Positions 1 through 64,000 of a DNA stretch of 64,000 bases are shown here, piece after piece. Position numbers and translations under genes: made by a program. The stretch's first letter is position 1, and every line of letters starts with the position of its first letter. Source of the DNA: Candidatus Limnocylindria bacterium (GTDB taxonomy: Bacteria; Acidobacteriota; Terriglobia; Acidiferrales; UBA7541); contig DATHIB010000164.1 of assembly GCA_035490055.1 (NCBI GenBank), positions 29,380-93,379 on the forward strand, read 5' to 3'. The notes beneath the pieces were generated by a model. It saw only the letters and a program-made list of their open reading frames with translations, was not told the origin of the DNA and did not search any database.

Positions 1-909
1 CTGCCTTCCGGGAGCGGCGAGACCGAGGCGTCCACTTCTACAAGACAAGAAGCTACCGAGCAGCAGCCGCAGGACTTCAATGCGCGCTGCCACACGGCGG
101 GAGTCGTGGTATGCCAAGGTTTCGATTCTCCCCTCATCAATATTGCTGCAAGGTGGCCCGCTCCCGGCCTTTATCCGGGTGGAGACAATTCCATCCACGG
201 AAAGTTCGACCGATCAGAAAAAGCTTCCGGAGAAGGATCGCTGCAATTTGAAATTCTCACGCACACCGGGGCGAACGCAGCGGGGTACTGGCGGCAACCC
301 CTGGGCACGAATTTCGGGGCGGGCGCAACGTTTTATGTTCAGTTCCGTGAGCGTTTTTCTCCGGAAATGTTGACGAACAATTGGGGCGACACGACGTGGA
401 AACAGATCATCTTTCACAACGAGAGCGCCACATGCGGGCAAGTGGAGCTATCGACAGCGCAGTATTACCATGCAGGTTTTCCAATCATGTACACCGACTG
501 CGGCGGCCGCGGCGTGGTCACCAACGACGGCACACCCCCTTACAAACTTGAGCAAGGTGACTACAATTGCTGGTACGGAAGGACGAATGCGAAGGACTGC
601 TTCCTCTATCCCGCGAATCAGTGGGTGACTTTCTATTACCAAATTTCCATCGGACATTGGGGCAAGCCGGACAGCACTATCAACGCTTGGGTCGGCCTGG
701 ATGGAAAGCCGATGCAGGAATGGATCAAGATGGCAAACTTCATTCTGAAGAATGACAACCCAGGACACGACTACGATTGCGTGACGCTGCTCACTTACAT
801 GACGAACAAAAGCGCGGGCCTCGACCTTCCCACCGCCTATGCCTGGTACGATGAACTGATCGTTTCCACCAAGCCAATCGCCCCGCCAACGCCGACAAGA
901 GCGCATTGA
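1..909 (+). CDS. 5'-truncated protein with polysaccharide-lyase-like / ConA-type beta-sandwich domain
   Basis: Frame 1 is open from base 1 (LPSGSGETEAST...ARCHTAGVVVCQGFD), so the ORF starts before the window. Beta-strand motifs FYVQFRERF, WKQIIF, NQWVTFYYQI and AWYDELIVST resemble PF14099-like lyase/jelly-roll proteins. Confidence 0.5.
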   Translation: MPSGSGETEASTSTRQEATEQQPQDFNARCHTAGVVVCQGFDSPLINIAARWPAPGLYPGGDNSIHGKFDRSEKASGEGSLQFEILTHTGANAAGYWRQPLGTNFGAGATFYVQFRERFSPEMLTNNWGDTTWKQIIFHNESATCGQVELSTAQYYHAGFPIMYTDCGGRGVVTNDGTPPYKLEQGDYNCWYGRTNAKDCFLYPANQWVTFYYQISIGHWGKPDSTINAWVGLDGKPMQEWIKMANFILKNDNPGHDYDCVTLLTYMTNKSAGLDLPTAYAWYDELIVSTKPIAPPTPTRAH

Positions 910-959
910 GGTGCGCGCGGCGGGGAGCAGACTGGGGCGGGGATTTCAGAGCGGAAGCA

Positions 960-2919: not shown

Positions 2920-4281
2920 CTAGTGTCTCGATGTTTTCGCGTTGAGCGGGTGCACTGTCAACTCGCAACTCTCTCCGTCCGCACGATTTTCCGCGCGCGG
3001 CGACTTGCCGGTCAATCCATCCAAGACCTTCGCCAACTGGCCTGTCTGAGCCTCGCGTGTATAGCGCTGGATCTTATCCTTGTCGGGAAGAGGATGAGTG
3101 CCAACTCGCAAAGTATCAACAAATGTGGACAATCCCTCATAAATCTCATCTTCGGATGCGATGTTGACGACCGTGGCTCCGCCGACTTCGCGCAGGAGAG
3201 CCGCGGTGTCACCGGTCTGCGTTGTCAAACCAAGAATGGGCTTGCCAATTCGAAGGTACTCGTAGGCTTTCGCGGGAATCTGCTTATCGCAATCTGCGGC
3301 CTGGAAGAGCAAGAGCCCATCGGCGTCGGCACATTCCTGCAAAGCCTGACGGTAGGGCATGTGGGGTTCAAGAACGATCAGATCCTCGATGTCCCTCTCC
3401 GCGAGGAGCCTGCGGTACAAGTCTTCCGAGCCAGGTGCGCGAAAAACAATTTGAACTTTATCGGCGCTGAGGCGGCCCATCTTTTTCAGGCGACCGACCG
3501 CGCTGAACATAGGTCTTGGGTCACGCTCGACGGGATAGATCAGGCCGGAGTGAACGAGCCGGATGGGACGGCCCACCGGAACAGGACCTGGCGTGGGAAT
3601 ATGCAGGTATCGAAAATCTTCTTCGTCATAACCATTTGAAATGAGGACACACATGTCTGGCGTGAGCAAATCCGGGTAACGCTCGAGGTACATCTGCCGG
3701 GTAGCTTCCGCCGTAAAAATCACGCGGGAGACACGTCGCATGCAGGCGTGCTCAATGGCGCCCCACACGCGGCGGACCAGGAGATCGTGAGGGTAGTCGT
3801 CCTGGCGCATGGGATCGCGAAGATCGAGAACCCAAGGTAAACCGGTCAGGCGCTGCAATCCAAGCCCGATCGCAGCCGCCGACATAATCGGAAAGGTAGA
3901 GTAGAGCACGTCGGTCTTATGAACTCGAACCGCGCGCAATCCAGCAGGGACTCCTCCGAGAATCCAACTGACCCAGCGGTCCGGCAAGGCCATGTACCTG
4001 AGATAGCGGCCCCCGATGCCCATGTGCTTCTTTGTGTCTAACGCGAAAGCGCGAATGACCGGCACATTCCTGGGAATGGAATCCAGGCTCCTCTCGTCGA
4101 TTTTCTCATACGCACGGGCGTGCGGAGTCAGCACCGCGGGCTGCCAGCCGAAGGTGGGCAGGTAGCGGGAATACTTCAGCGATCGCAGTAGACCGCTGCT
4201 GCCTGCTTGGGGCGGAAAGTGGTACGCGATGATTAGAACATTTCCCAAGGGGTCCAATCTCACTATACCCGGCCGGTGCAA
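2920..4281 (-). CDS. Glycosyltransferase family 4 (GT-B)
   Basis: LIIAYHFPP N-terminus, LISNGYDEEDF, IPAKAYEYLRIGKPIL. The true start may be a few codons downstream of 4281. Confidence 0.85.
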   Translation of the reverse strand: MHRPGIVRLDPLGNVLIIAYHFPPQAGSSGLLRSLKYSRYLPTFGWQPAVLTPHARAYEKIDERSLDSIPRNVPVIRAFALDTKKHMGIGGRYLRYMALPDRWVSWILGGVPAGLRAVRVHKTDVLYSTFPIMSAAAIGLGLQRLTGLPWVLDLRDPMRQDDYPHDLLVRRVWGAIEHACMRRVSRVIFTAEATRQMYLERYPDLLTPDMCVLISNGYDEEDFRYLHIPTPGPVPVGRPIRLVHSGLIYPVERDPRPMFSAVGRLKKMGRLSADKVQIVFRAPGSEDLYRRLLAERDIEDLIVLEPHMPYRQALQECADADGLLLFQAADCDKQIPAKAYEYLRIGKPILGLTTQTGDTAALLREVGGATVVNIASEDEIYEGLSTFVDTLRVGTHPLPDKDKIQRYTREAQTGQLAKVLDGLTGKSPRAENRADGESCELTVHPLNAKTSRH

Positions 4282-4321: not shown

Positions 4322-5596
4322 TCACCGTTCATTCCTAGTGTGTAGTTCTGCGTCAACCCAAATTTCCGCCGGCAAAGGGTGGCTGAGGAAACCCACCGGG
4401 CTCGCTGACCGGCCGTAAGCGCCGGACTGAAAGATGCCGACAAGGTCGCCGATTTCCGCGTGCGGGAGGACGATCCCGCGCGCGAGGGTATCGAGCGGGG
4501 TGCAGAGGGGGCCTACAATATCCACGGCTTCGTCCGCTGGCGCGGTCAGCTTATTCACCAGGGCTATGGGGTAATTTCGTTTGATAGTCTGGCCAAGATT
4601 GCCGGAAGCCGCCAAATGATGGTTCATTCCACCATCGACAATGAGGAATTTCTTGCCGCGTGAAATCTTGATGTCGCTGATGCGTGTCAGGTAGACGCCT
4701 GCTTCGCCGGCGAGAAATCTACCGGGTTCGACGAGAAACTGGGTGCCCTCGAAGCACCGATGGGCATCCACTTCCTCACAAAGCGTCAGCAGTCCTTTTC
4801 GCAAACAATCAAGATTCAGTTCCTGCTCATGCGCGAAGTACGGGATTCCCAGACCTCCGCCGAAATCCAGCGTGCGGAGCGGGCGGCCCAGCCGCTCAAC
4901 GACGCGCCGGGCGAGGCTCAACCCGTGGCGATACTGATTGTGCAGAGTTGCCGCATCCAGAATCTGAGTTCCGGTGAACAGGTGGATTCCGCAGAGATCG
5001 AGCGCTGGCTCGGCAAGAACAGCCTCCAGTACTTGATCGAGGATCTCTTCGTCCATGCCAAATGGCGCCGGGCGGCCACCCATGCGCATCGCTCCGCCTT
5101 CGGCTTCGGCTGCTGGATTGATGCGGACGGCAACCTGAGCGCGGCGACCAAGAGGTCGGCAAATTGTGGCGATGCGCTTGGCTTCTGTGAGCGACTCCAT
5201 GTGGATCTCACCGATGCCATTCAAGAGCACCAGTTCGAGTTCCGCTTCGGATTTTCCAGGTCCGGCAAACAAAATTCGTTCCGGTGGACAGCCCGCCTCC
5301 AGCGCTTTCCGGAACTCACCCGCCGATGCAATTTCGATCCCGCAGCCCCGGCTCAGGAAATGCTTCACAACGGCAAGACAAGGATTGGCCTTAATAGAGT
5401 AGTAGATGGCGAAGCGTTCCGGAAGAGTGGTACGAAGCGCGTCATACTTCAGATCCAGCACGGCACGGTCATAAACAAACAGCGGTGTGCCGTAGGATTC
5501 CACGAGTTGATTGACCGGCAACTCACCGATGACCAGTGACTTCCCAGACTTCGGGAAATACTTCGCTGTCAGATATGCCGCCAGATCAGCCATCAA
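4322..5596 (-). CDS. Fold-type III PLP-dependent decarboxylase (LysA/BtrK-like; exosortase-A-associated TIGR03099-like)
   Basis: PLP lysine in YYSIKANP, plus HLFTGTQ, DFGGGLG, EPGRF, GPLCTPLD and SGAYG. Start overlaps the ligase stop (TGATG coupling). Confidence 0.88.
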   Translation of the reverse strand: MMADLAAYLTAKYFPKSGKSLVIGELPVNQLVESYGTPLFVYDRAVLDLKYDALRTTLPERFAIYYSIKANPCLAVVKHFLSRGCGIEIASAGEFRKALEAGCPPERILFAGPGKSEAELELVLLNGIGEIHMESLTEAKRIATICRPLGRRAQVAVRINPAAEAEGGAMRMGGRPAPFGMDEEILDQVLEAVLAEPALDLCGIHLFTGTQILDAATLHNQYRHGLSLARRVVERLGRPLRTLDFGGGLGIPYFAHEQELNLDCLRKGLLTLCEEVDAHRCFEGTQFLVEPGRFLAGEAGVYLTRISDIKISRGKKFLIVDGGMNHHLAASGNLGQTIKRNYPIALVNKLTAPADEAVDIVGPLCTPLDTLARGIVLPHAEIGDLVGIFQSGAYGRSASPVGFLSHPLPAEIWVDAELHTRNER

Positions 5597-7161
5597 AGCC
5601 CTTCACGGCGCCGCAACGCTGGGTAGTCCACTTTTCCGCTCGAAGTTTTCGGCAGCTCGCCCAGGATTTCAAATGTTTTCGGAACCATATAGCGGGGCAT
5701 TTTCCCCGCGCAAAAAGCAAGTAGCGCGTTGATGTCCAAGGAATTGCCGTCTTTCGATACAACAAACGCTTTAATAGCCTGTCCGAGAGTGTCGTCGGGA
5801 ATGCCGATGACGGCTGCCCCGCGTAATTCTCCGCTCTGGAAGAGCACCTCTTCCACTTCGGTGGGGCTGATGCGAAATCCACTGGACTTGATCATCGTAT
5901 CGCGCCGGCCAATGAAATACAGAAAACCGTCTTCATCCATTTTTACGAGGTCGCCCGAATAGCAAACCTTTTCGCAGTCACCCAGTTCCGGTGACAACTG
6001 CGGATTCGGCCGAAGGGCACGGGCTGTGTCTTCCGGCCGGTTCCAATAGCCGAGCGAAACCGTCGGCCCGCGGTGCACAAGTTCACCAGGCTCGCCAGGT
6101 TTGCAAAGCTGACCTTGCTCGTTGAGCACAAGAATTTCAGTGTCTGGAATGGCTTTGCCCATCGAGGTCGGCCGCCGATCGAGTTCTTCCGGCGGAAGAT
6201 AAGTCGAACGGAAAGCTTCGGTGAGCCCGTACATCAGAAACACTTTCGTTGCGGGAAGCACTTCTCGCAACACTTTGAGGACCGCCTGCGGCATTGCGCC
6301 ACCCGTATTCGTGATGTAGCGCAAGTGAGGCACCGGTTGCTTGGCGAGAGTTGCATTGGGCTGCGTCAGCAGGCTCCACAAAGTGGGCACGCCCGCGAGA
6401 CCGGTGATTTTTTCCTTGAGCAGGACCTGAACGATTTCGCGCGCAAAAATAAAATTGATGAGCACGCAGGTGCCGCCCTTTTCGAACGCGGTCATCAATT
6501 GATTCATTCCGGCGTCGAAACTGAAAGGCAGAACGGCGAGGATACGCTCGCCGTCGGTGATGCCAAGATAAGTGGAGACGATCCGGCTGCCGGCGACCAC
6601 GTTCGCATGACTCAGCATCACGCCTTTAGGCTTGCCGGTTGAACCGGAGGTGTAGAGGATGGCCGCTAGATCCTTTTCGATGCTCGTCTCGCGCCAGTCT
6701 GCTGGGAGTGTCCGGGCGCAGAACTCATCAAAAGGGTGAACCGTGAGTTGCGCCGTCACTTCTCCAGAACCGACCACCACTAGAAACTCGAGCGAGGGAA
6801 TCTGTGGGAGCACCTCAGCAAGCGAAGCGAGTTTCGCTGCCGTGCTAATCAGACCTTTCATCCCGCAATCCCGAGCGATATGCATTACCTGCTCGGCGTG
6901 CAAAAGTGCGTTGATGGGAACATAGACAGCCTCTGCGCGCGAAATGCCAAAGATGGAGATGACCTGGGGGACAGAGGCTTCCAGATAGATGCCCATTCTG
7001 TCGCCGCGGCGGAGTCCGGCGCTTCGCAAGCCAACGGCGAGTCCTTCGACGCGGCGTGCAACTTGACCGTAAGTCAGCCGCTCTTCTCCGTGTGCGAGGG
7101 CTTCTTTTTCCGGTGAACGCCTAGCGCTCTCACGCAATAGATGCCAAATCAGGAAGTCCAT
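5593..7161 (-). CDS. Adenylate-forming (ANL) acyl/aminoacyl ligase (TIGR03098-like)
   Basis: ILYTSGSTGKPKGVMLSH, MYGLTE, SGDL, GRRDTMIKSSGFRISPTEVE, PKTSSGKVD. Start placed at ATG 7161 (MDFLIWHLL) rather than 7254. Confidence 0.9.
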   Translation of the reverse strand: MDFLIWHLLRESARRSPEKEALAHGEERLTYGQVARRVEGLAVGLRSAGLRRGDRMGIYLEASVPQVISIFGISRAEAVYVPINALLHAEQVMHIARDCGMKGLISTAAKLASLAEVLPQIPSLEFLVVVGSGEVTAQLTVHPFDEFCARTLPADWRETSIEKDLAAILYTSGSTGKPKGVMLSHANVVAGSRIVSTYLGITDGERILAVLPFSFDAGMNQLMTAFEKGGTCVLINFIFAREIVQVLLKEKITGLAGVPTLWSLLTQPNATLAKQPVPHLRYITNTGGAMPQAVLKVLREVLPATKVFLMYGLTEAFRSTYLPPEELDRRPTSMGKAIPDTEILVLNEQGQLCKPGEPGELVHRGPTVSLGYWNRPEDTARALRPNPQLSPELGDCEKVCYSGDLVKMDEDGFLYFIGRRDTMIKSSGFRISPTEVEEVLFQSGELRGAAVIGIPDDTLGQAIKAFVVSKDGNSLDINALLAFCAGKMPRYMVPKTFEILGELPKTSSGKVDYPALRRREGL

Positions 7162-7207
7162 AGCGACTATTCGAAAACCCTTTCTCCTTTGATTCAGCGA
7201 TTTCTGC

Positions 7208-8422: not shown

Positions 8423-8724
8423 TCACTCTTTCCGGTCTTTTTCAGGACGAACGCAGAGAGAGTGCCGAGCGTATGAAAATTTTCCGGCATCAGCTCATCA
8501 TCGCTGACCACGATCGAGAATTCGGTTTCGAGAAAGCTCACCACGTCGAGAATTCCAAGGGAATCCAGGATTCCCTTTTCAAGCAGTGCCGTGTCTTTGC
8601 CGACTCCAGACTTCCGTGCGAGCGGGAATTTTTCCAGCAGAAACGCGTGAATTCTCTGTTCGATTGAGCCTGTTGTGGTCTGATTCATTTCTTCGTCCTC
8701 GCTGCTAACTTTCTCTGTCTCCAT
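8419..8724 (-). CDS. Acyl carrier protein
   Basis: Small acidic protein with phosphopantetheine-site motif GILDSLGILDVV and C-terminal PENFHTL. Alternative start MNQ at 8688. Confidence 0.9.
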   Translation of the reverse strand: METEKVSSEDEEMNQTTTGSIEQRIHAFLLEKFPLARKSGVGKDTALLEKGILDSLGILDVVSFLETEFSIVVSDDELMPENFHTLGTLSAFVLKKTGKSE

Positions 8725-9881: not shown

Positions 9882-9897
9882 AGCACGCTGTCTGCCA
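9882..9897 (-). promoter_or_regulatory. sigma54-type -24/-12 box for the leftward tailoring operon
   Basis: Minus strand reads TGGCAGACAGCGTGCT (GG-N10-GC), ~110 bp upstream of the 9772 start. Confidence 0.55.
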
Positions 9898-10266: not shown

Positions 10267-10282
10267 TGGATGGTGAGTTGCT
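10267..10282 (+). promoter_or_regulatory. sigma54-type -24/-12 box for the priming transferase
   Basis: TGGATGGTGAGTTGCT (GG-N10-GC, TTGCT), ~128 bp upstream of 10410. Confidence 0.55.
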
Positions 10283-12125: not shown

Positions 12126-12141
12126 GGGAAACTGGTTTCCT
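12126..12141. promoter_or_regulatory. Candidate enhancer palindrome
   Basis: GGGAAA-CTGG-TTTCCT, 71 bp upstream of the sigma54-like box at 12212. Confidence 0.4.
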
Positions 12142-12211: not shown

Positions 12212-12227
12212 TGGCCGGAACATTGCT
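12212..12227 (+). promoter_or_regulatory. sigma54-type -24/-12 box for wza
   Basis: TGGCCGGAACATTGCT, 35 bp before the TTG start, with a GGAGG RBS between. Confidence 0.6.
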
Positions 12228-45587: not shown

Positions 45588-45590
45588 GCC

Positions 45591-47515: not shown

Positions 47516-47563
47516 ACGCTCTTCTTTTTTTAAGGACGATGAGAGGAAGGATCGCGAGATAGG

Positions 47564-50662: not shown

Positions 50663-50678
50663 TGGAAGGCGGGGTGCT
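50663..50678 (+). promoter_or_regulatory. sigma54-type box for the giant IPT protein
   Basis: TGGAAGGCGGGGTGCT. Confidence 0.5.
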
Positions 50679-50909
50679 TTGTCATTCTGCACTACTTAAC
50701 GGTTGGAGGTCTGTCGTTAGGGCACGAAACCAGGTCTTGAGCGGTAGCTGTATAGCAAGAGGGGAACCCAGCAGCCAGCAGGCGTGTCGCGATTCTGGAT
50801 GCGGCCGTACTTGCCAACCGTTGGTTCAGCCAAAGCTTCCTTACTCGCTCGTTGGCAGTCTTATTTACCGGAAAATTTTATTTGCTGCGTCTCCCGCGGA
50901 GGATGCTTC

Positions 50910-53900: not shown

Positions 53901-56900
53901 TCTGCCACTCCCACAAGCTGGGGCGCGAGCGGCATCGTCGTTCCGGTTCCGGCCGCCGCAACAACAGGCAATGTTGTCGTGGCGGTCGGAGGTCAAGCCA
54001 GCAATGGCTCGAACTTCACGGTGACCACGTCAACTGCGGGGATCGCAGTCGTCCAGCATCGAAGCAAGGATGCCGGCGTCACCGCTTCTTCGACCCTGGC
54101 GTTTAATTCGACCAATTCCGTCGGGAACTGGATCGCCGTAGTCATTCGCGCGGGCAAGACAGGGCAAGTCTTGACGGTCTCAGACACGCGCGGAAATACC
54201 TACCGCAAAGCGATCCAATTTAACGTCACCACGGACACCCCGAACGGCGACACGCTCGGAATTTTCTACGCTGAAAATATCGCCGGCGGAGCGAACACGG
54301 TTACGGTAGCGGAGAGCATTAATGGCAATACCTTGCGGTTCGCCATACTCGAGTACTCGGGTGTTGCGCTCGCCAATTCGCTCGACGTGGTTTCCACCGC
54401 GCAAGGAACGAGCGCGACCGCCAATGGCGGCAGCGTGCTCACGACTGCCAATGGCGACCTGCTGCTCGGCGCGGTCCTGACGGGCAATCCCGCGACCTTC
54501 ACCGCGGCAACCGGCTATGCGATCGAAGAGAGAGTTCCCGCATCTCCGAACACCAAATTGGCCGCAGAAGACCAGATTCAGGCGACTGCCGGAACCGTTT
54601 CTGCGGGCGTCACGCTGGGCTCATCCGATAGCTGGGGTGCCGGACTGGCCGCGTTCAAGGCCGTCAGCGGCGGCGGGACCACCGGCCCATCAATCACGAG
54701 CTTGAATCCAACTTCGGGTGTCGTCGGCACATCCATAACCATCATGGGCGCAAACTTTGGCGCCAGCCAAAGCACCAGCACCGTGGCCTTCAACGGGACT
54801 GCCGCGACTCCCACAAGCTGGAGCGCGACGAGCATCGCCGTTCCGGTTCCGACGGGCGCGACCACCGGCAACGTCCTCGTAACAGTTGGCGGCGTGGCCA
54901 GCAACGGAGTCACGTTCAACGTCACCGTACCGCCGCCGAGCATCACGAGTCTAAATCCCACGTCGGGTCTAGTAGGGGCGTCCGTCACGATCACGGGCAC
55001 AAATTTCGGTGCTTCGCAAGGCACCAGCACGGTGAAGTTCAACGGGACCTCGGCTTCACCCACCAGTTGGAGCGCAACGAGTATCGCTGTGCTTGTTCCC
55101 ACAAGCGCCACGACCGGCAATGTCGTAGTGACCGTGGGCGGAGCGTCGAGCAACGCAGTCAATTTTACTGTCCTCGTTCCACCGAGCGTCACCAGTTTGA
55201 CCCCGAATTCGGGAATGGTCGGGACATCCGTGACCGTCGCGGGGGCGAACTTTGGAACGGCGCAGGGAACTAGCGCACTTACATTCAATGGGACTGCGGC
55301 GACACCGACAAGCTGGAGCGCGACCAGCATCGCGGTGTCCGTGCCTACTGGAGCGACGACTGGCAATGTTGTCGTCACTGTCGGCAGTTTGGCGAGCAAT
55401 GGTGTGAACTTCACAGTCGTTGTTCCGCCAAGCATCACCAGCTTGACTCCTAATTCCGGAACGGCCGGGACGTCTGTGACACTCGCCGGGGCAAATTTCG
55501 GCGCAACTCAGGGAACCAGCACGGTGACGTTCAACGGCATCGCCGCGACTCCTACAAGCTGGAGCGCGACGACCATTGCCGCCCTGGTTCCGAACGGCGC
55601 GACCACTGGCAACGTCATCGTGACGGTCAACGGTGTCGCCAGTAACGGCGTATCGTTCACGGTCACTTCGCCGGGTCCGAGTCTCACCTCGCTTGGCTTA
55701 ACCCAGGGTCCCGTGGGAGCGACCGTGACGATCACCGGTACGAACTTCGGCGCGACTCAGGGCACCAGCACTGTCACGTTTAATGGCGCCGCGGGAACAC
55801 CTTCCAACTGGACCGCCACGGGTATTGACGTGCCGGTTCCGACTGGCGCAACGACGGGAAATGTTGTCGTTACCGTTGGCGGCGTGGCCAGCAACGGACT
55901 GCCTTTCACGGTTACACCGCCCCCGAACATTTCGAGCATTAGTCCGCTATCGGGGCCAATCGGTGCTGTCGTCGCCATCAACGGCACGAACTTTGGACCC
56001 ACGGTCGGTACAAGAGTGAGCGGCGTGACGTTCAACGGCGTTGCCGCAAGAACGAACAGCTGGAATGACACGCAGATTCTCGTACCCGTGCCCGCAGGCG
56101 CGACCACTGGAAACGTGATCGTTTCGATCAGCGGTGTTGCCAGCAACGGCGTTCTCTTCACCGTCACGGCGGCCCCGGCGATCACAACAGTGGGCCCGAC
56201 AGGCGGACCCGTCGGCACATCGGTCACCATCAGCGGTACCAGCTTCGGCTCAAGTCAGGGCACCAGTACGATTACATTTAACGGCACGACCGCGACACCC
56301 ACGAGTTGGAGCGACACCAGCATCGTGGCGCCGGTTCCAACGGGCGCAGCAACCGGCAACGTCGTCGTATCCGTCGGCGGAGTCGCCAGCAATGGTGTCG
56401 CCTTCATCGTGACCGCAGGGTCGGGGACCATCAAGCTGGTTCAACACACCGGCAAAGACGCGGGCACCACCAACTCTTCTTCTTTGGCGTTCACTTCGAA
56501 TAACACTGCAGGAAACTTTATCGCCGTGGTCATCCGCGCCGGCAAATCAGGCCAAGTGCTAAACGTTTCGGACTCTCACGGGAACACTTATAAACAAGCA
56601 GTCCTTCTCAATATGACCCTAGATGGCGAAACGAACGCTGTCTACTATGCCGAGAACATTGCCGGTGGTGCGAACACCGTCACCGTCTCCGATAACATCT
56701 CGGCCGCAACGCTGCGCTTCTCCATCATGGAATACTCAGGAGTGGCACTGACCAACTCTCTAGATAACGCCTCTGCGGCAGAGGGCACGGGTACGGCGCC
56801 GAGCACGGCAAATGCTCCCACGTCGTGGGGCGGCGATTTGCTCCTTGGCGAAATCGTCACCGCAAATCCCGCCGCCTACACAGCCGGCGCCGGTTACAAG

Positions 56901-59135
56901 ATCGAAGATTTTGTTCCCGCGGAACCCAACACCAAGTTGATCGGCGAAGACCAGATCCAAACTACTGCCGGAAACGCCTCAGCGAACGCAACGATCGGCG
57001 CCTCCGACAATTGGGGGGCGGTTTTCGCGGCGTTCAAATCGGCCAATGGCATTCCGGCTCAACCCATCAGCGTTAGCATCTTACCCGTCAGCGCCAGTGT
57101 TCCAGCGACCTTTGGGACGCAGGTATTCACGGCGCAGCTGACCAACGATGTCCAAAACAAGGGCGTGACGTGGTCGATCTCCGGCACCGGTTGCAGTGGA
57201 AGCACGTGCGGCACGCTGACAAACGCAACCTCGACGTCCGTGACTTACAACGGGCCCTCAGCTATACCGAACCCAGCCACCGTCACACTTAAGGGCACTT
57301 CTCTCTCGGACAACACCAAATCGAGCACCGCGACGATCACTGTCGTCCAAGGCCTGCTCACCGTTTTCGTCAGTCCGAAGCGCGGCTCGATTACCACTTC
57401 TCAGGCGCAGCAATTTATGCCCACTGTCTTCAACGACCCGAATAACGCTGGCGTAACCTGGCAAGTAGATGGCAGCACAGGCGGCAATAGCACCACCGGC
57501 TCCATTAGCACATCGGGTCTCTTCACGCCGGGGACACAGCCAGGAGTGCATACCATTACGGCGGTGAGCGTCACAAACGCTTCGGTGACTGCTTCGGTGA
57601 CCTTTGCCGTCAGCGACATCGCGGGTGTTTTCATGCACCACAACGACGTCGCTCGCACCGGTCAAAACTTGAAAGAGTATGCATTGACGACCTCCAACGT
57701 CAATTCGTCTACGTTCAAGCAGCTCTTCTCTTGCCCGGTGGACGGTCAGATCTACGCCCAACCGCTCTACATGGCCAACCTGTTGGTCGGCTCCACCACG
57801 CGCAACGTCGTGTTTGTCGCCACGGAGCACGATAGCGTCTACGCCTTCGACGCTGATTCCCCCTCTTGCGTACAGCTCTGGAAGACCAGCTTTCTAGCGA
57901 CCGGGGTCACCACTATGTCTTGGCTCGATACTAGTCCTACTTACCCCACCAACGACGTATTCCCCGAGATCGGCATCACATCAACGCCGGTCATTGACAC
58001 GGCGACGAACACTATCTATATCGAGGCCAAGACGAAGGAATCGGTGGGCACAGGTTGTTCCACGAGCTCTCCTTGCTACGTTCACCGCTTGCATGCCCTG
58101 AACATCACCACGGGCGCAGAAAGATTTGGGGGCCCCGTTGTAATCTCGGATCCAAACTTTGTCTCGTTGCGCCATTTCAACAGGCCTGGTCTGCTATTGG
58201 CCAATGGCACCGTTTACATCGGCTTCGGATCACACGGCGATATATCAAACTGGCAGGGTTGGGTGTTTGGCTATGACCCAGCCACCCTGGCGCAGAAGTT
58301 CGTGTTCTCAACCTCGGATCCCAGGAGTGGGAGCAACGGCGCGTCCGTTTGGGATGCCGGCGCAGGTCCCGCTGCCGATGCGAGCGGTAACATCTACGTC
58401 ACGACCGGCAACGGCTCCTATGATGGTACGAAGAATTTCTCCGAGTCGGTATTGAAGCTTAGCCCCTCGGGAGCGTTGCTCGATTGGTTCACTCCGTTTA
58501 ACCGCAGCGTTCTCGACGCCAATGACGTTGACATGGGCTCCGCAGGCATCGTGGTTCTGCCCGACTCTGTCGGTTCCGCAACCCACCAACATTTGGTCCT
58601 CGCTACTGGCAAGATTGCCATTCTTTACCTGCTGGATCAGATCAGCTTGGGCAAGTTCAATTCCGGGAGCAACCAGGACGTGCAGGAAGTAATTCCTGTT
58701 CCTCCTCCCAACACCACGCAACTGGATGGCGGTATCTACGGCCTGCCAGCCTATTGGAACGGAAACATATACGTGACGGGACAGAACTTCCCATTGAGCC
58801 AATTCACGATCGCGAATGGCGCCATGTCCACAACGCAATCTGCCGTTTCGAGCAACACGTTCCCGCCGCGAGGCGCGATACCTGCCGTCTCCGCTAATGG
58901 GAATACCAATGGCATCGTTTGGATCCTGGATCTGAGCGCCTGGCCGTCAAACGGCGCGGCCGTCCTGTACGCTTACGATGCAACCAATGTCGCCAACTTG
59001 CTCTACAGCAGTCCTGCAAGCGGGACTGGCGCTGCCGGGGCCGCCGTAAAATTCACCGTGCCGACTGTCGCCAACGGCAAGGTTTACGTTGGCGGACAGA
59101 CTTCGTTCACTGTTTTCGGTCTGCTGCCGAACTAA
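50910..59135 (+). CDS. Giant secreted surface protein: 4 uncharacterised ~200-aa beta domains, 14 IPT/TIG repeats, 2 Ig-like domains, C-terminal PQQ-like beta-propeller
   Basis: GGAGGA RBS before ATG 50910, signal peptide ending GQALA, repeats PSITSLNP..G..GTSVTI.G.NFG, C-terminal HNDVARTGQN...PTVANGKVYVG. No PEP-CTERM or LPxTG tail. Confidence 0.9.
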   Translation: MLICSRRHNGSTLQVRLARSLALLVLLLAAASGQALAASVAFVQSNSATPQSPQATVTVTYAAAQTLGNLNVVVVGWNDSISTLSSVTDSLGNAYVLAAGPLVQTGTASQAIYYAKNISAAAASANSVTVTFSVAAAFPDIRIAEYGGLDTVNPLDVSAGAQGTTTSTSSSGSVTTSSANDLLVGANLVQSTTTGAGAGYTSRGITGDGDILEDRIVTVTGSYNATAALDKVQSWIMQMVAFRAAGGSTPAPSITNLSPTTGPVGTSVTIAGVNFGASQGSSTVTFNGTAATPTAWGATSITAPVPTGATTGNVVVTVSAQPSNGVNFTVGAGSPIVFIQANSASPQATQTPVTVTYTGAQTAGNLNVVIVSWNDSTATISSVTDSIGNTYAVAAAPVVQSATASQAIYYGKNIAAAAAGANTVTVTFNVAARHPDIRIAEYSGVDPLNPLDASVGAQGNTATSDSGPVSTTNANDILIGANVVQATSTGPGTGYSSRGITVDGDILEDQVVSVTGSYSATATLDKVQLWIMQMAAFRAATSGGSPAPNIASLNPTTGPAGTSVTITGSNFGTSQGTSIVNFNGTTATPTNWSANSIVVAVPAGATSGNLVVTAGGVASNGVTFTVISTPSISSLNPSSGPVGASVTITGANFGASQGTSTVTFNGTPASPTSWTATSITVPVPTGATTGNVIVTVGGLPSNGLSFIVMPIPTITSLNPASGAIGASVTIAGANFGASQGTSAVTFSGIASTPTSWSATSIAAPVPNGATTGNVLVTVNGLASNGVSFSVTSTAPSITSLNPTSGPIGTSVTIAGVNFGASQGTSTITFNGTTATPTSWSATSIAVPVPTGATTGNIVVTVGGQVSNGLNFTVTIPAPSITSLNPASGVVGTSVTIAGTNFGASQGTGTITFNGTAGTPAAWSATGITVPVPTGATTGNIVVTAGGVASNGINFTVTTPPSITSLTPASGPVGTSVTVAGANFGPTQGTSTVTFNGISATPTSWGASGIVVPVPAAATTGNVVVAVGGQASNGSNFTVTTSTAGIAVVQHRSKDAGVTASSTLAFNSTNSVGNWIAVVIRAGKTGQVLTVSDTRGNTYRKAIQFNVTTDTPNGDTLGIFYAENIAGGANTVTVAESINGNTLRFAILEYSGVALANSLDVVSTAQGTSATANGGSVLTTANGDLLLGAVLTGNPATFTAATGYAIEERVPASPNTKLAAEDQIQATAGTVSAGVTLGSSDSWGAGLAAFKAVSGGGTTGPSITSLNPTSGVVGTSITIMGANFGASQSTSTVAFNGTAATPTSWSATSIAVPVPTGATTGNVLVTVGGVASNGVTFNVTVPPPSITSLNPTSGLVGASVTITGTNFGASQGTSTVKFNGTSASPTSWSATSIAVLVPTSATTGNVVVTVGGASSNAVNFTVLVPPSVTSLTPNSGMVGTSVTVAGANFGTAQGTSALTFNGTAATPTSWSATSIAVSVPTGATTGNVVVTVGSLASNGVNFTVVVPPSITSLTPNSGTAGTSVTLAGANFGATQGTSTVTFNGIAATPTSWSATTIAALVPNGATTGNVIVTVNGVASNGVSFTVTSPGPSLTSLGLTQGPVGATVTITGTNFGATQGTSTVTFNGAAGTPSNWTATGIDVPVPTGATTGNVVVTVGGVASNGLPFTVTPPPNISSISPLSGPIGAVVAINGTNFGPTVGTRVSGVTFNGVAARTNSWNDTQILVPVPAGATTGNVIVSISGVASNGVLFTVTAAPAITTVGPTGGPVGTSVTISGTSFGSSQGTSTITFNGTTATPTSWSDTSIVAPVPTGAATGNVVVSVGGVASNGVAFIVTAGSGTIKLVQHTGKDAGTTNSSSLAFTSNNTAGNFIAVVIRAGKSGQVLNVSDSHGNTYKQAVLLNMTLDGETNAVYYAENIAGGANTVTVSDNISAATLRFSIMEYSGVALTNSLDNASAAEGTGTAPSTANAPTSWGGDLLLGEIVTANPAAYTAGAGYKIEDFVPAEPNTKLIGEDQIQTTAGNASANATIGASDNWGAVFAAFKSANGIPAQPISVSILPVSASVPATFGTQVFTAQLTNDVQNKGVTWSISGTGCSGSTCGTLTNATSTSVTYNGPSAIPNPATVTLKGTSLSDNTKSSTATITVVQGLLTVFVSPKRGSITTSQAQQFMPTVFNDPNNAGVTWQVDGSTGGNSTTGSISTSGLFTPGTQPGVHTITAVSVTNASVTASVTFAVSDIAGVFMHHNDVARTGQNLKEYALTTSNVNSSTFKQLFSCPVDGQIYAQPLYMANLLVGSTTRNVVFVATEHDSVYAFDADSPSCVQLWKTSFLATGVTTMSWLDTSPTYPTNDVFPEIGITSTPVIDTATNTIYIEAKTKESVGTGCSTSSPCYVHRLHALNITTGAERFGGPVVISDPNFVSLRHFNRPGLLLANGTVYIGFGSHGDISNWQGWVFGYDPATLAQKFVFSTSDPRSGSNGASVWDAGAGPAADASGNIYVTTGNGSYDGTKNFSESVLKLSPSGALLDWFTPFNRSVLDANDVDMGSAGIVVLPDSVGSATHQHLVLATGKIAILYLLDQISLGKFNSGSNQDVQEVIPVPPPNTTQLDGGIYGLPAYWNGNIYVTGQNFPLSQFTIANGAMSTTQSAVSSNTFPPRGAIPAVSANGNTNGIVWILDLSAWPSNGAAVLYAYDATNVANLLYSSPASGTGAAGAAVKFTVPTVANGKVYVGGQTSFTVFGLLPN
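51657..56414 (+). repeat. 14 diverged IPT/TIG repeats (~245 bp) in blocks of 1, 6 and 7
   Basis: Counted by hand from the translation; blocks at ~51657-51902, ~52545-54026 and ~54678-56414. Confidence 0.85.
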
Positions 59136-62300: not shown

Positions 62301-64000
62301 CCGCCAACGCCGACACGACTCCACCGACCACGCCTTCCGGCTTGACAGCGCTCGCAACCGGCCCAACCCAGGTCAATCTCTCCTGGACCGCCTCGACCGA
62401 CAACGTTGGAGTCTCGGGCTACGTTGTGCAGCGTTGTTCGGGCTCGGGCTGCACGAATTTCGCTCAAGTAGCTTCTTTGCCGGGCAACACAACCGCGTAC
62501 GACGACACCAGCCTGGCGCCTTCCACAACCTACACCTATCAAATCGTTTCCACGGACGCAGCGGTCAATCTCAGTCTGCCTTCGAATCCAGCGAGCGCCA
62601 CGACGCAGGCAGACACCACTCCGCCGACCGCGCCAACCAACCTCGCCGCCACGGTCGCCGGCAACACTCAAATTAATTTGTCTTGGACGGCCTCGACGGA
62701 CAACGTTGGCGTCACCAACTACCTGATTCAGCGCTGCGCAACGCCCGGATGCTCAAATTTCGCTCAGATTGGAACCACCGGTGGTCCGGGAACAACCTAC
62801 AACGATGCGGCTGCTTCGGCCTCCACCAGCTACACCTATCAAGTGATCGCCACGGATGCGGCTGGTAATCCCGGCTTGCCCTCGAATACTGCCACGGCCG
62901 TCACCATGGGACCGCCAGCCACGCCTTCTGCTTTGACAGCTACTGCGGCCTCGGCTACGCAAATCAACCTCTCGTGGACCAACGACGCCATCAATCAATC
63001 TGGTTTTAAGGTGGAACGTTCGCCGGACAACGTTACATTTACCCAGATCGGCACAACCAGCGCCACCGCCTACTCGGATCCAAATTTGGCGCCGAAGATC
63101 CTCTACTATTACCGCGTTCGGGCCACGAACGCCTCCGGAGACTCCGGCTACTCCAATGTTTCCAGCGCCACAACGCTGCCAGACACGACCCCACCAACCG
63201 CGCCATCCAATCTGACGGCGACTGCCGCCAGCAGCACGCAAATTAATCTTTCCTGGACAGCCTCGACGGACAATGTCGGCGTGACCGGATACCAGATCCA
63301 ACGCTGCCAGGGTGTGAGCTGCACCACCTTGTCGCAAATCGCAGCACCCACGGGAACCGGCACAACTTATGTCGACACCGGCCTTTCACCTTCGACGAGT
63401 TATAGCTATGAAATCATTGCCGCGGACGCCGCGGGGAATCAGAGCCTGCCATCCAACCTTGGAACGGCAACGACGCTTGCCGGTCCGCCTGCCATACCTT
63501 CCAATTTGACCGCGACCGCTGCCGGTGCGACGCAGATCAATCTTTTGTGGACTAACAACGCCACCAATCAAACCGGGTTCAAGGTTGAACGCTCGCCGGA
63601 CAATGTGACCTTCACGCAAATTGCCACGACCGGCGCAACGATTACAACGTATTCCGACAGTCCTCTCGCACCCGTGACCCTTTACTACTATCGTGTGCGG
63701 GCCACCAACGGCTCAGGTGACTCGACCTATTCAAACCTGGCCAGCTCCACCACGCTTGCGGATACAACGCCGCCAACGGCCCCAACAAACTTGACGGCGA
63801 CGGCCACGAGCAGTTCGCAGAACGATCTTTCCTGGACCGCCTCGACGGACAACGTCGGCGTCACCGGTTATAAGATTCAGCGCTGTCAGGGGACGGGATG
63901 CACCACCTTTGCGCAGATTGCCACGCCGCCGGGAACAGGCACAACCTTCAGTGACACTGGTCTCTCTCCATCCACCAGCTACAGCTACGAGATCATCGCT
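59303..64000 (+). CDS. 3'-truncated giant secreted copper-radical oxidase (galactose/glyoxal oxidase, AA5-like) with DUF1929, PKD, Ig-like, one ~200-aa beta domain and >=7 FN3 repeats
   Basis: Hand-translated, open from ATG 59303 (AAAGGA RBS) to the window end (1566 codons). Signal peptide. Kelch repeats with DLFC (Cys 59594), RWYP (Tyr 59747), RLYHS (60356-60361) and VTHS (His 60614). Confidence 0.92.
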   Translation, partial: MTPASRRRLVALALLTCSLSSILLAPQAAGQASVQGQWQTLVTLAPINPVHLALMHNGKILFATGSGNDKTVTFFQGGVFDPVTDTTTTQPLTWDLFCNGMVVLPDGRPFIMGGTINYNPFQGSNRTTAFDPASGNFVDLQSMAHGRWYPTSTVLPDGRVMVFSGLTETGGTNVAVEIYKVGAGWSQQYMAPFTPPLYPRMHVLPNGKVFFSGSTAQSWTFDPSNQSWTAGPTTNYGNTRTYGSSVLLPLTPANGYNPKVLILGGASPSTATTELIDLSAASPKWVNGPSMVQPRIEMNATILPNGKILTSGGSQIDEDGTTASLKAELYDPTAGATGAFTSAGSNTYPRLYHSNTILLPDATVLMAGSNPRQGAYDPHMEIYSPPYLFNSNGTLATRPTIASVTPGVIGYNGAFQVQTPDAANITSAVLIRAGAVTHSFDMDQRLVGLVFTAGSGVLNLTSPPNSNIAPPGYYLLFILNSSGVPSGAQFVQLSLTPTDLSPTGTIVTPTSNVAIGPGQSVSFSGTGSDPDGTVAAYNWVFPSGSPSSSSSQNPGSVSFANPGTYIASLTVTDNVGLTDPSPATRTITVTPDFSLTFSPATQTVVAGNGTSYTINVVPGPNFTGSVSFSASGLPSGASATFNPATVTTSGSTTMTVSTSAGTPIGNSNLTVTGTSGASSHSVTPVLSVIVSADTIPPTAPTNLTATASSNLQINLSWTAATDNVGVTGNKVERCQGAGCTNFGQITTLGAVTSYTDTSLQPSTSYSYRIRANDAAGNIGAYSNVASATTPAAPPPPIKFVQQVALTTGSGVSTASQTFTIPSVSGDLIVVGVKWGNQAISVASIGDDKGNNYTNAVGPTNWSGTAKRAQIFYAKNIIGGGAPITITVTLTGIATSSFYIYQLEYSNADINAPLDVVSAAIGTSTFVSSGSATTNFPNELIFGFSIADSVGINPGPGFTAESTFRGNLVEDMTVSTTGSYAALGTETGVSNWFMLMAAFKAANADTTPPTTPSGLTALATGPTQVNLSWTASTDNVGVSGYVVQRCSGSGCTNFAQVASLPGNTTAYDDTSLAPSTTYTYQIVSTDAAVNLSLPSNPASATTQADTTPPTAPTNLAATVAGNTQINLSWTASTDNVGVTNYLIQRCATPGCSNFAQIGTTGGPGTTYNDAAASASTSYTYQVIATDAAGNPGLPSNTATAVTMGPPATPSALTATAASATQINLSWTNDAINQSGFKVERSPDNVTFTQIGTTSATAYSDPNLAPKILYYYRVRATNASGDSGYSNVSSATTLPDTTPPTAPSNLTATAASSTQINLSWTASTDNVGVTGYQIQRCQGVSCTTLSQIAAPTGTGTTYVDTGLSPSTSYSYEIIAADAAGNQSLPSNLGTATTLAGPPAIPSNLTATAAGATQINLLWTNNATNQTGFKVERSPDNVTFTQIATTGATITTYSDSPLAPVTLYYYRVRATNGSGDSTYSNLASSTTLADTTPPTAPTNLTATATSSSQNDLSWTASTDNVGVTGYKIQRCQGTGCTTFAQIATPPGTGTTFSDTGLSPSTSYSYEIIA
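61380..64000 (+). repeat. Seven fibronectin type III repeats of two subtypes
   Basis: Type A: DTTPPTAP.NL...WTASTDNVGV...RCxGxGC. Type B: PP..PS.L...WTN...GFKVERSPDNVTF. Order A,(insert),A,A,B,A,B,A. Confidence 0.88.

Follow-up and report, generated by a model that had tools for sequence, protein, structure and literature searches.

The window analysed here, the whole stretch of 64,000 nucleotides, comes from the genome of an uncultured soil Acidobacteriota and covers the middle 64 kb of a surface-matrix island that measures about 80 kb in all. On the left the island is bordered by regulatory genes, namely a conserved histidine kinase, a sigma-54 activator of NtrC type and an orphan one, and on the right by metH. 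It is a large slime-coat gene island, of an already familiar type of system, that combines a polysaccharide locus of exosortase type with a second, widespread sugar cassette and the genes of two giant secreted proteins, most of them behind sigma-54 promoters. Every component of the gene inventory given in the original prediction was found in our profile searches. The two congeners that carry this locus type are G013 (about 80% amino acid identity) and G003 (about 50-60%).

Profile matches identify the region from base 1 to 34,500 as a canonical exopolysaccharide locus of the XrtA/PEP-CTERM (exosortase A) system, an identity of the island core that the earlier reading had overlooked. TIGR03097, TIGR03098, TIGR03013, TIGR03019, TIGR03108 and TIGR03006 score above their curated cut-offs in this locus, and seven further XrtA-system models are the best match with scores slightly under the cut-off. 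The genes are as follows.

1..909, plus strand: 3' part of a 337-aa secreted protein (ORF start at contig C164:29275)
960..2912, minus strand: AsnB-type amidotransferase 1 (PF00733, 2.7e-98; TIGR03108, 586.7 bits, below the 816.9 cut-off)
2920..4281, minus strand: GT4 glycosyltransferase (PF13579/PF13439, weak)
4322..5596, minus strand: PLP-dependent decarboxylase, exosortase A system-associated type (TIGR03099, 452.3 bits, slightly below the 478.45 cut-off)
5593..7254, minus strand: AMP-forming acyl/aminoacyl ligase, exosortase A system-associated (TIGR03098, 643.6 bits; cut-off 592.35)
7208..8422, minus strand: FemAB-like GNAT, Acetyltransf_6 (PF13480, 1.3e-29)
8419..8724, minus strand: acyl carrier protein, ACP (PF00550 and several ACP NCBIfam models)
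8705..9772, minus strand: GNAT acyltransferase, leading gene of the leftward operon (PF13527, 5.6e-08)
10410..11807, plus strand: EpsB, priming polyprenyl-phosphate glycosyl-1-phosphate transferase (TIGR03013, 457.8 bits; cut-off 393.35)
12262..12981, plus strand: Wza-type outer-membrane polysaccharide export protein (PF02563 and SLBB domains; TIGR03027, 142.5 bits, below cut-off)
13016..14416, plus strand: 466-aa protein without a family, conserved in position
14763..16331, plus strand: chain-length determinant, Wzc N-terminal half (TIGR03007, 252.9 bits, below the 278.85 cut-off; GNVR and Wzz domains)
16339..17475, plus strand: AAA ATPase, XrtA/PEP-CTERM system-associated type (TIGR03015, 226.7 bits, below cut-off; AAA_22)
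17476..18327, plus strand: tyrosine autokinase, Wzc C-terminal half (TIGR01007, 141.5 bits; cut-off 108)
18422..18682, plus strand: small HTH_3 protein (PF01381, 4.6e-08), syntenic in G013 and G003
18669..19763, plus strand: FemAB-family XrtA/PEP-CTERM system-associated protein (TIGR03019, 333 bits; cut-off 260.35)
19832..21067, plus strand: GT4 glycosyltransferase, stp2 type (TIGR03088, 295.7 bits, below cut-off)
21054..22928, plus strand: AsnB 2, XrtA/PEP-CTERM system amidotransferase (TIGR03108, 824.4 bits; cut-off 816.9)
22938..24827, plus strand: AsnB 3 with a weak glutaminase domain (PF00733, 3.3e-79; GATase_7 only 1.2e-18, from residue 62)
24811..26052, plus strand: polysaccharide deacetylase, N-terminus PgaB/IcaB-like (PF01522, 5.6e-21)
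25991..27394, plus strand: Wzy_C-family membrane protein, 'putative O-glycosylation ligase, exosortase A system-associated' (TIGR03097, 373.1 bits; cut-off 188.1)
27450..28637, plus strand: 395-aa protein without a family, syntenic in G013 and G003
28415..30031, plus strand: GT2 glycosyltransferase (PF00535, 6.6e-24, from residue 198)
30120..31409, plus strand: GT4 glycosyltransferase, stp3 type (TIGR04063, 428.9 bits, slightly below the 442 cut-off)
32054..33253, minus strand: GT4 glycosyltransferase, TuaC-like (PF00534, 2.8e-36)
33644..34537, plus strand: XrtA system polysaccharide deacetylase (TIGR03006, 355.8 bits; cut-off 276.2)

The Wzc function is split over two genes (14763-16331 and 17476-18327), and the true start of the GT2 gene probably lies downstream of 28415, as relatives align only from residue 130-156 or thereabouts. 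The 337-aa, 466-aa and 395-aa proteins gave no Pfam or NCBIfam match in profile searches. The 466-aa protein is syntenic in G013 (64% identity) and G003 (27%), and the domain of the 337-aa protein is paralogous to the C-terminus of a 1283-aa IPT/FN3/kelch protein upstream; in 20-21 of 80 species loci a homolog of the 337-aa protein is found no more than 10 kb from the TIGR03098 ligase. XrtA is encoded elsewhere in the genome (279.6 bits against a cut-off of 208), on another contig together with the genome's only PEP-CTERM protein; the gene of that protein has no sigma-54 box before it, and no ortholog of PrsR or PrsK in the genome reaches the cut-off.

This first module thus comprises EpsB as the priming transferase, the GT4 and GT2 enzymes, the Wzy_C-family TIGR03097 protein, and Wza with the split Wzc for export. 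With them come the AsnB amidotransferases, the FemAB/GNAT enzymes, the deacetylases and the ACP-ligase-decarboxylase cassette. The latter is a recurrent unit, with the ligase being accompanied by a TIGR03099-like decarboxylase in 77 of 80 loci, by the ACP in 73 and by the adjoining GT4 in 53, and it probably N-acylates or aminoacylates a de-N-acetylated sugar.

A second module, self-contained and distinct from the first, occupies bases 35,300-50,000. It is a C-methyl-sugar cassette (DUF4910 and partners) that has its export by Wzm/Wzt and was assigned from Pfam matches.

35328..42218, plus strand: NDP-sugar C-methylation cassette, comprising the next seven genes
35328-36389, plus strand: SDR
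36418-36948, plus strand: RmlC-like protein
36662-38302, plus strand: DUF4910 protein
38324-39247, plus strand: 2OG-oxygenase-like protein
39290-40537, plus strand: C-methyltransferase
40583-41572, plus strand: nucleotidyltransferase
41562-42218, plus strand: PIG-L deacetylase
42197-43060, plus strand: Wzm (PF01061, 2.5e-16)
43129-44493, plus strand: Wzt with a C-terminal glycan-cap-binding domain (PF00005 and PF14524, Wzt_C, 2.8e-19)
44466..48835, plus strand: four glycosyltransferases (three GT2, one GT1-like)
48902..49957, plus strand: Cys-rich 351-aa protein without a family

Profile searches gave no family match for the Cys-rich protein, homologs of which occur beside the giant-1 homolog in G003 and in 7 of 80 DUF4910 loci. 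The gene set of the cassette co-occurs in 57-72 of the 80 DUF4910 loci, from many phyla including Cyanobacteria, Nitrospirota and Chloroflexota, and XrtA genes lie near it in G013 only. The second module is a portable C-methyl-branched deoxysugar cassette with its own glycosyltransferases and a Wzm/Wzt exporter, its product probably being a second, ABC-transporter-dependent, O-polysaccharide-like polymer.

The original prediction had instead proposed a single aminoacylated or amidated, methyl-branched glycan that is exported and perhaps attached to, bound by or oxidatively cross-linked with the giant proteins. Spelled out as one pathway of all three modules, the glycan would be built on Und-PP and exported, and the TIGR03097 protein would link it to Ser/Thr of the giants as in S-layer glycosylation, or the oxidase would cross-link it to them. 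This proposal gains some support from the name of TIGR03097, which is the sole strong Wzy_C-family gene in the island, from the lack of a ligase or priming transferase among the genes of the second module, and from the layout of the two modules, which adjoin in G003 and G013 and whose ligase and DUF4910 cassettes lie on one contig, 31-47 kb apart, in three more acidobacterial MAGs. Against it, the island contains two complete and different export routes, the XrtA loci that are the home of TIGR03097 are without an ABC exporter, and the cassette is found across phyla almost always without XrtA genes, so that two polymers were probably conflated into one glycan.

The third module consists of the large IPT/FN3 proteins, secreted by the Sec route.

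50784..59135, plus strand: giant secreted protein 1, about 2,741 aa, with four 205-aa domains, 14 IPT/TIG repeats and a C-terminal propeller-like domain of about 500 aa
59270..64000, continuing to 65272, plus strand: giant secreted protein 2, 2000 aa, with a GlxA-like radical copper oxidase head, PKD and FN3 repeats and two 205-aa domains

Both giants have a signal peptide, before which giant 1 likely starts at 50910, and they have in common the 205-aa domain, an unnamed beta-sandwich. A PEP-CTERM tail was looked for and found in neither; they are not exosortase substrates. The C-terminal domain of giant 1 gave no sequence match in the PDB. Among solved structures, the giant 2 head matches GlxA of Streptomyces best (4UNM, E 8e-59), and the active-site motifs Cys, W-Y, Y-H and H align between the two. 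The Ser+Thr content of the giants (26.4% and 26.2%) would suit glycosylated cargo, but these residues are located within the folded IPT/FN3 Ig-like repeats and not in mucin-like linker tracts, and the domain families of the giants are also present in congeners without TIGR03097. Attachment of one common glycan to the giants is thus improbable in our estimate. By analogy with GlxA and CslA, the giants may rather act on or bind polysaccharides outside the cell.

The motif reported before most units is real and corresponds to sigma-54-type boxes; the C-methyl cassette has one, and so does giant 1, though a weaker one. As read from the sequence, the common motif is a loose sigma-54 -24/-12 box.

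9882..9897, minus strand: box of the GNAT-ACP-ligase operon, TGGCAGACAGCGTGCT, conserved in G013 and G003
10267..10282, plus strand: weak sigma-54-like box of EpsB, score 5/8
12126..12141, no strand: palindrome, candidate activator site, GGGAAACTGGTTTCCT, 71 nt before the Wza box, conserved in G013
12212..12227, plus strand: box of the Wza unit, TGGCCGGAACATTGCT, conserved in G013
14563..14578, no strand: perfect palindrome, candidate activator site, GGGAAATGGGTTTCCC, 112 nt before the chain-length box
14690..14705, plus strand: box of the chain-length/ATPase/kinase unit, TGGAAGACAACTTGCT
33573..33588, plus strand: box of the TIGR03006 deacetylase, TGGAAGGCCAATTGCA, with equidistant boxes in G013 (score 7) and G003
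35150..35165, plus strand: box of the C-methyl-sugar cassette, TGGTACGCTGCATGCT, with aligned TGGCAC/TGGCAT boxes in G013 and G003
50663..50678, plus strand: sigma-54-like box of giant 1, TGGAAGGCGGGGTGCT, score 5/8

The strict TGGCAC-N5-TTGC motif is not enriched in the window (2 matches, 5.9 expected), whereas looser GG-N10-GC boxes are, with eight of the 18 good boxes falling in the intergenic 8% of the window (p~3e-5, a binomial estimate). These boxes are correctly oriented, 35-180 nt before the GNAT-ACP operon, EpsB, Wza, the chain-length gene, the TIGR03006 deacetylase, the C-methyl cassette and giant 1; the window scan found none upstream of the HTH/FemAB unit or giant 2. Boxes keep their position in G013 and G003 while the DNA around them has diverged, and the chain-length box is the best-conserved island of the three-genome alignment.

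The boxes are also enriched before orthologous operons of other Acidobacteriota. Across the upstream regions of species-representative loci, with the antisense strand as the control, boxes were found before the GNAT-ACP-ligase operon in 35/50 (antisense 5/50), before the Wza unit in 12/31 (antisense 0/31) and, at about 55-67 nt, before the chain-length unit in 15/32 (antisense 1/32). The EpsB box is not enriched (3/35, control 2/35) and is doubtful as a sigma-54 promoter. Of the acidobacterial loci, 8/15 have a box 108-194 nt before the gene that opens the C-methyl cassette, as against 4/45 of those from other phyla. The giant 1 box is 120 nt from the first ATG of the frame (50799), or about 230 nt if the protein starts at 50910; it has no aligned orthologous site in relatives. 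Boxes were also found ahead of the giant-1 homolog in G003 and of a 205-aa-domain protein in the congener G008. Exact GGAAA-N4-TTTCC copies number just 13 genome-wide, two of them in the locus, each upstream of a box.

The genome encodes rpoN and about 15 sigma-54 activators, among which the flanking ones are candidate cognate activators; Pfam confirms the kinase, the REC-sigma-54-HTH_8 regulator and the orphan activator. In G003, G008 and G013 the NtrC-type regulator shows 90-95% identity and lies beside the syntenic island or a different polysaccharide cluster. In 12-14 of 80 species, activator homologs are found no more than 10 kb from the TIGR03098 ligase. Co-regulation as a matrix programme is plausible on these sequence grounds, with RpoN and the flanking activators possibly switching on the entire island; promoters common to the modules would also fit a single glycan pathway.

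Alternatively, the stretch between the two-component genes and metH may be a recombination hot spot that gathers unrelated surface genes, the giants being general adhesins or enzymes unrelated in function to either glycan and sigma-54 the habitual driver of surface genes in this lineage. The content of the island varies among congeners (G008 has another polysaccharide type at the corresponding site, and TIGR03097 is over its cut-off in just 2 of 40 relatives), and sigma-54 controls the exterior of the cell in general (PMC3162934). The giant-1 C-terminal domain family is found in 23 of the 25 genus genomes searched, our own included; 22 of 24 congeners have 1-7 copies, and the present genome has two more paralogs elsewhere. 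GlxA-like giants (60-67% identity) occur in six congeners without an XrtA-type locus, and G003, which has the locus, is without one, which makes the tie of the giants to this particular glycan weak. On the other hand, GlxA-like giants again adjoin polysaccharide clusters, of other types, in G001, G010 and G020, although a more distant copy in G006 lies only near a lone ATPase homolog, about 11 kb away. The 205-aa domain recurs inside polysaccharide islands of G000, G003, G005 and G008, the giant-1 homolog of G003 is embedded in the second module despite rearrangement, and in the Acidobacteriaceae MAG L141 no more than 10 kb separate a homolog of the giant-1 C-terminus from the TIGR03098 ligase. 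We regard chance adjacency as unlikely, though it deserves more weight than the single-glycan pathway.

The explanation that we favour, with reasonable though far from full confidence, is a three-module matrix island under a sigma-54 programme, with two polymers and extracellular giants. The proposed integration holds in part, as far as promoters and the grouping of the modules are concerned: all three occur together in both congeners with this locus type. The synteny comes mostly from one genus and may reflect shared ancestry.

The earlier statement that no characterised example exists was too strong, as the left 34 kb represent the well-described XrtA/PEP-CTERM system, the sigma-54 link of which has been in print since 2006 (PMC1569441).

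About 45 open reading frames (ORFs) of the window were scanned with the Pfam and NCBIfam models, and each item of the component list in the original prediction was found again. No RNA families were found in the window by an Rfam scan. The genome to which the window belongs (G000) is represented by a 5.9 Mb assembly of 211 contigs that is 96% complete. In the third AsnB paralog (22938-24827), the synthetase domain is strong whereas the glutaminase domain is far weaker and starts late (GATase_7, 1.2e-18 from residue 62).

The protein families encoded by the left 34 kb (module 1) identify it as the exopolysaccharide locus that Haft et al. 2006 (PMC1569441) described for the PEP-CTERM/EpsH (exosortase A) system. 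The matches above the model cut-offs are listed below.

NCBIfam matches above cut-off in module 1 (score in bits; cut-off in brackets)
TIGR03098, ligase, exosortase A system-associated: 643.6 (592.35)
TIGR03013, XrtA/PEP-CTERM system glycosyltransferase: 457.8 (393.35)
TIGR03019, FemAB family: 333 (260.35)
TIGR03108, amidotransferase: 824.4 (816.9)
TIGR03097, putative O-glycosylation ligase: 373.1 (188.1)
TIGR03006, XrtA system deacetylase: 355.8 (276.2)

Matches to TIGR03099, 03027, 03007, 03015, 03018, 03088 and 04063 fall below their cut-offs, yet these are the top XrtA-system matches. The gene list predicted for this region was right, although its XrtA/PEP-CTERM identity had gone unnamed where NCBIfam names the system directly.

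XrtA itself lies on a different contig from the window (C208:29401-30174, within a 545-aa ORF; 279.6 bits, cut-off 208). The 785-aa ORF directly upstream of it is, at a guess, a TPR protein of the PrsT (TIGR02917) type. A single PEP-CTERM protein was matched in the whole genome (23.1 bits, cut-off 16); it adjoins XrtA, and no sigma-54 box was found before its gene. No PEP-CTERM protein was found in the window. XrtA is thus unlinked to the island, unlike the exosortase-family genes of two congeners, which are located inside polysaccharide islands of other types (G008:C7:150016-150783, 207 bits; G005:C16:48313-49107, 124 bits; both scored against the XrtA model and both under its cut-off of 208). 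In a third congener, G003, the sole exosortase A-like match (G003:C12:852603-853199) has five in-frame stops, though the XrtA-type polysaccharide locus is intact; this assembly is 80% complete, so an intact exosortase copy could be absent from it.

A 57-codon ORF at 50180-50353 (+), ending in ...SNLPETMGLFLIGLVLILSGVVLRRVF..., was also observed. It has no upstream protein body, and its tail resembles a degenerate PEP-CTERM, with PET for PEP followed by a TM helix and then RR. A sigma-54-like box at 50153 precedes it, TIGR02595 gave no match on it, and it may be the relic of a sorted-protein gene.

Shared control of the units by sigma-54, as originally proposed, is well supported by the sequence and its comparison among relatives, which reveal boxes that are conserved and enriched across species. 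With the strict consensus TGGCAC-N5-TTGC (one mismatch allowed), two matches were found in the window against 5.9 expected, and the motif holds only in a looser form, namely GG-N10-GC with at least six of eight further consensus positions. Eight of the 18 loose boxes are situated in intergenic DNA, which makes up 8% of the window. A position-weight matrix scan, trained on orthologous sites and hence partly circular, was set aside. The boxes of five units (the GNAT-ACP-ligase operon, Wza, the chain-length gene, the TIGR03006 deacetylase and the first cassette gene) occur at equal distance in the congener G013 and also in G003, which is much more divergent, and the box is the best-conserved island in the three-genome alignments. 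Two facing GG-N10-GC boxes with a common central TGCA were observed at 33573-33600; of these, only the rightward (deacetylase) one is found again, at an unchanged distance, in G013 and G003.

Boxes were further counted in 80 species-representative loci found with the ligase, where the antisense strand served as control.

Loci with a box upstream of the gene, sense strand and antisense control
GNAT operon: sense 35/50, antisense 5/50
Chain-length gene: sense 15/32, tightly at 55-67 nt; antisense 1/32
Wza: sense 12/31, antisense 0/31
EpsB: sense 3/35, antisense 2/35

The EpsB box was rejected as a promoter, being without cross-species support. For the first gene of the C-methyl-sugar cassette, a box is present 108-194 nt upstream in 8 of 15 acidobacterial loci against 4 of 45 loci of other phyla, and this portable cassette therefore appears to be wired to sigma-54 in Acidobacteriota. 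The Wza and chain-length boxes are preceded, at 71-112 nt, by a palindrome, GGGAAA-N4-TTTCC(C/T). Its exact core GGAAA-N4-TTTCC has only 13 copies genome-wide, two of which are these sites, both kept in G013. The genome contains rpoN and encodes enhancer-binding proteins, and the -24/-12 elements, at short distance, are kept in relatives. RpoN-dependent transcription of the island is a prediction from these features.

A HisKA/HATPase kinase, a REC-sigma-54-HTH_8 regulator and an orphan sigma-54 activator were identified with Pfam 11-16 kb to the left of the window. Counterparts of the REC-sigma-54-HTH_8 regulator in G003, G008 and G013 share 90-95% identity with it, a degree of conservation well above that of the polysaccharide genes. 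Synteny with G003 extends over all 105 kb, but module 2 is rearranged there and includes a 2051-aa homolog of giant 1. At the same site, between metH and the regulators, G008 has a different polysaccharide cluster with its own exosortase-like gene and proteins carrying the 205-aa domain described below. Because the content differs in G008 and TIGR03097 is above cut-off in just 2 of 40 relatives, the locus appears to be a variable surface island beside conserved regulators. No PrsR (TIGR02915) was found above the cut-off of 502.6 (genome best 428.8 bits, island regulator 374 bits) and no PrsK (TIGR02916) above 300 (best 104.4 bits, kinase core only); the regulatory proteins are therefore unlike those of the proteobacterial system. 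Between the regulators and the window, within G000:C164:18928-30288, three secreted proteins are placed.

Secreted proteins left of the window
1118-aa IPT protein, whose apiosidase-like match is weak and below cut-off (E 0.002)
1283-aa IPT/FN3 protein, with a stretch paralogous to the neighbouring kelch protein
407-aa kelch protein

The 337-aa protein at the window start is a paralog of the C-terminal domain of the 1283-aa protein, a domain without family assignment. In 20-24 of 80 species, homologs of the kelch protein and of this C-terminal domain are encoded no more than 10 kb from the ligase.

Module 2 (35-50 kb) begins with seven sugar-modification genes, encoding an SDR, an RmlC-like epimerase, a DUF4910 protein, a 2OG-oxygenase-like protein, a C-methyltransferase, a nucleotidyltransferase and a PIG-L deacetylase. 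Downstream of this cassette are Wzm (PF01061, 2.5e-16), Wzt (PF00005, 8.4e-24) with a Wzt_C domain (PF14524, 2.8e-19), four glycosyltransferases and an unassigned Cys-rich protein. Scanning species-representative genomes with the DUF4910 protein gave 80 loci from Cyanobacteria, Nitrospirota, Chloroflexota, Verrucomicrobiota, Acidobacteriota and others. The cassette genes were found together in 57-72 of these loci and Wzm/Wzt within 10 kb in 16-20 of them, while TIGR03097 or stp3 homologs were near DUF4910 only in the close relative G013. Since the cassette travels together across phyla and has XrtA-type genes nearby in G013 only, module 2 is best described as a portable module for an ABC-transporter-dependent glycan. 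By its gene content it is a second export route beside Wza/Wzc. The original prediction of a single, multiply decorated glycan thus gives way to that of two polymers, which the two export routes and the independent occurrence of module 2 make more likely. Most DUF4910 homologs from other phyla align only from residue ~100-117 and several acidobacterial ones from residue 1; because of this difference, the start of the DUF4910 gene is uncertain. The RmlC-like ORF (36418-36948) and the DUF4910 ORF (36662-38302) were observed to overlap by 287 nt in different frames.

The right end of the window is occupied by two giant proteins that have in common a 205-aa domain, present in six copies in total.

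Giant proteins and copies of the 205-aa domain
50784/50910-59135, giant 1
59270-65272, giant 2 (2000 aa), extending past the window end
51027-51644, 205-aa domain
51915-52529, 205-aa domain
54042-54662, 205-aa domain
56430-57044, 205-aa domain
61691-62305, 205-aa domain
about 64652-65260, 205-aa domain, sixth copy, past the window end

Both giants have Sec signal peptides and a Ser+Thr content of 26%, which is spread over the IPT/TIG and FN3 repeats and not gathered in linkers. Their C-termini read ...GGQTSFTVFGLLPN and ...WFMQLLAIKRHP, in which no PEP motif, TM helix or Arg cluster was found by eye, by a regular-expression scan of all ORFs of the genome or with TIGR02595. As neither has a PEP-CTERM tail, the giants are not exosortase cargo.

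The first 520 residues of giant 2 match Streptomyces GlxA (PDB 4UNM) with an E-value of 8e-59, and PF09118 with 3.4e-26. The motifs FCNG/FCTG, RWYPT/RWYPT, LYHS/NYHS and VTHS/STHV are aligned between giant 2 (first of each pair) and GlxA (second), and their Cys, Trp-Tyr, Tyr-His and His residues are presumably the GlxA active-site positions (the Cys-Tyr cross-link pair and the Tyr/His/His copper ligands). With a predicted kelch propeller, an E-set domain and these motifs, the head of giant 2 fits the GlxA/galactose-oxidase radical copper oxidases. No PDB sequence match was found for the C-terminal 500 residues of giant 1, whose family has 1-7 copies in 22 of 24 congeners.

The 205-aa domain has invariant positions Q, D, GN-Y, Y-N, EY, D, ED and W, and its AlphaFold model (pLDDT 79) is an all-beta sandwich. 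Pfam has no model for the domain; a Foldseek search against the PDB gave no match at E<=0.001, with a query-normalised TM-score never above 0.31, and a PDB sequence search gave only a meaningless match (E 0.63). In metagenomes it was found in 17,840 representative proteins at E<=0.001, and its Pfam partners in 54 metagenomic proteins are solely Ig-like stalk domains and in no case catalytic. The domain occurs inside polysaccharide islands in four genomes of the genus. It represents a sizeable uncharacterised family that is worth a structure.

Among the relatives, a giant-1 homolog lies within the island of G003. The GlxA-like giant is absent from G003, and homologs of it with 57-67% identity occur in six congeners without an XrtA-type locus. 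GlxA-like giants directly adjoin other polysaccharide clusters in G001, G010 and G020, and G006 has a 33-44%-identical copy ~11 kb from an XrtA-type ATPase homolog. The idea of one decorated glycan attached to the giants is not supported; instead, they resemble partners that serve polysaccharide islands generally outside the cell, and not cargo of the XrtA-type locus. A stronger version, to which we give little credence, is that in this acidobacterial lineage the giant stalked GlxA-like radical copper oxidases and the 205-aa domain are extracellular partners dedicated to such islands. The oxidase would turn sugar hydroxyls of the exported polymer into aldehydes, and these would react with free amines provided by the deacetylases of the locus or by aminoacyl decorations. 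The product would be a polysaccharide-protein matrix with covalent cross-links, turned on as a single sigma-54 programme.

Acidobacteriota rank among the most abundant bacteria of soil, and their slime is believed to contribute to the building of soil aggregates; to our knowledge, no acidobacterial polysaccharide locus has yet been dissected genetically. The island map is concrete and testable. Its exosortase-type locus has conserved sigma-54 promoters before the biosynthetic operons and regulatory proteins that differ from the proteobacterial ones, and a portable C-methyl-sugar cassette has come under promoters of this type as well.

Compared with the XrtA/PEP-CTERM (EpsH) system, which underlies floc formation in Zoogloea and Aquincola (PMC9850573), the island shares TIGR03097, 03098, 03099, 03013, 03019, 03108 and 03006, the stp2/stp3 glycosyltransferases, Wza, the chain-length protein, the kinase and the ATPase, as well as XrtA in the genome and the sigma-54 link. 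It differs in that neither XrtA nor the only PEP-CTERM protein is linked to it, both being encoded on contig C208, that there is one such protein and not a large family, and that the large secreted proteins of the island have no PEP-CTERM tail. Module 2 resembles the ABC-dependent O-polysaccharide and S-layer-glycan pathways in having Wzm, Wzt with Wzt_C, nucleotide-sugar genes and GT2/GT1 glycosyltransferases in one operon. Such pathways, for example E. coli O9a and Geobacillus slg, use Wzm/Wzt with a C-terminal cap-binding domain on Wzt. Unlike them, module 2 has no priming transferase or ligase and lies behind a sigma-54-type promoter in Acidobacteriota.

Streptomyces GlxA is a radical copper oxidase paired with the glycan synthase CslA (PMC11022532, PMC4736821). 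Giant 2 is similar in that its head is closest to GlxA (4UNM) and its gene adjoins polysaccharide synthesis genes, but in this diderm the oxidase is predicted to form the head of a PKD/FN3 stalk protein of 2000 aa, and no CslA-type synthase partner adjoins it. GlxA-like giants beside polysaccharide clusters would, if true, extend the Streptomyces idea to Gram-negative bacteria.

That sigma-54 controls exosortase loci and the cell exterior has been published before (PMC1569441, PMC3162934, PMC9850573). PrsK/PrsR/PrsT form the sigma-54 regulon of proteobacterial PEP-CTERM genes (PMC1569441); Aquincola pepA is RpoN-dependent, and polysaccharide is still synthesised without RpoN1 (PMC9850573). The island is comparable in its -24/-12 promoters with an upstream site and in the NtrC-type regulator and kinase near the locus. 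However, its kinase, a HisKA/HATPase_c protein of 409 aa, falls far short of the length of the PrsK model (679 positions) and does not match it, and the boxes stand before biosynthesis and export operons, whereas the published proteobacterial ones stand before genes of sorted PEP-CTERM proteins. Francke et al. 2011 assigned sigma-54 a general role in controlling the bacterial exterior (PMC3162934), in a survey where the word Acidobacteria appears 0 times. The polysaccharide and surface-protein genes behind -24/-12 promoters with local enhancer-binding proteins agree with this theme, and the cross-species enrichment of the boxes carries it into Acidobacteriota.
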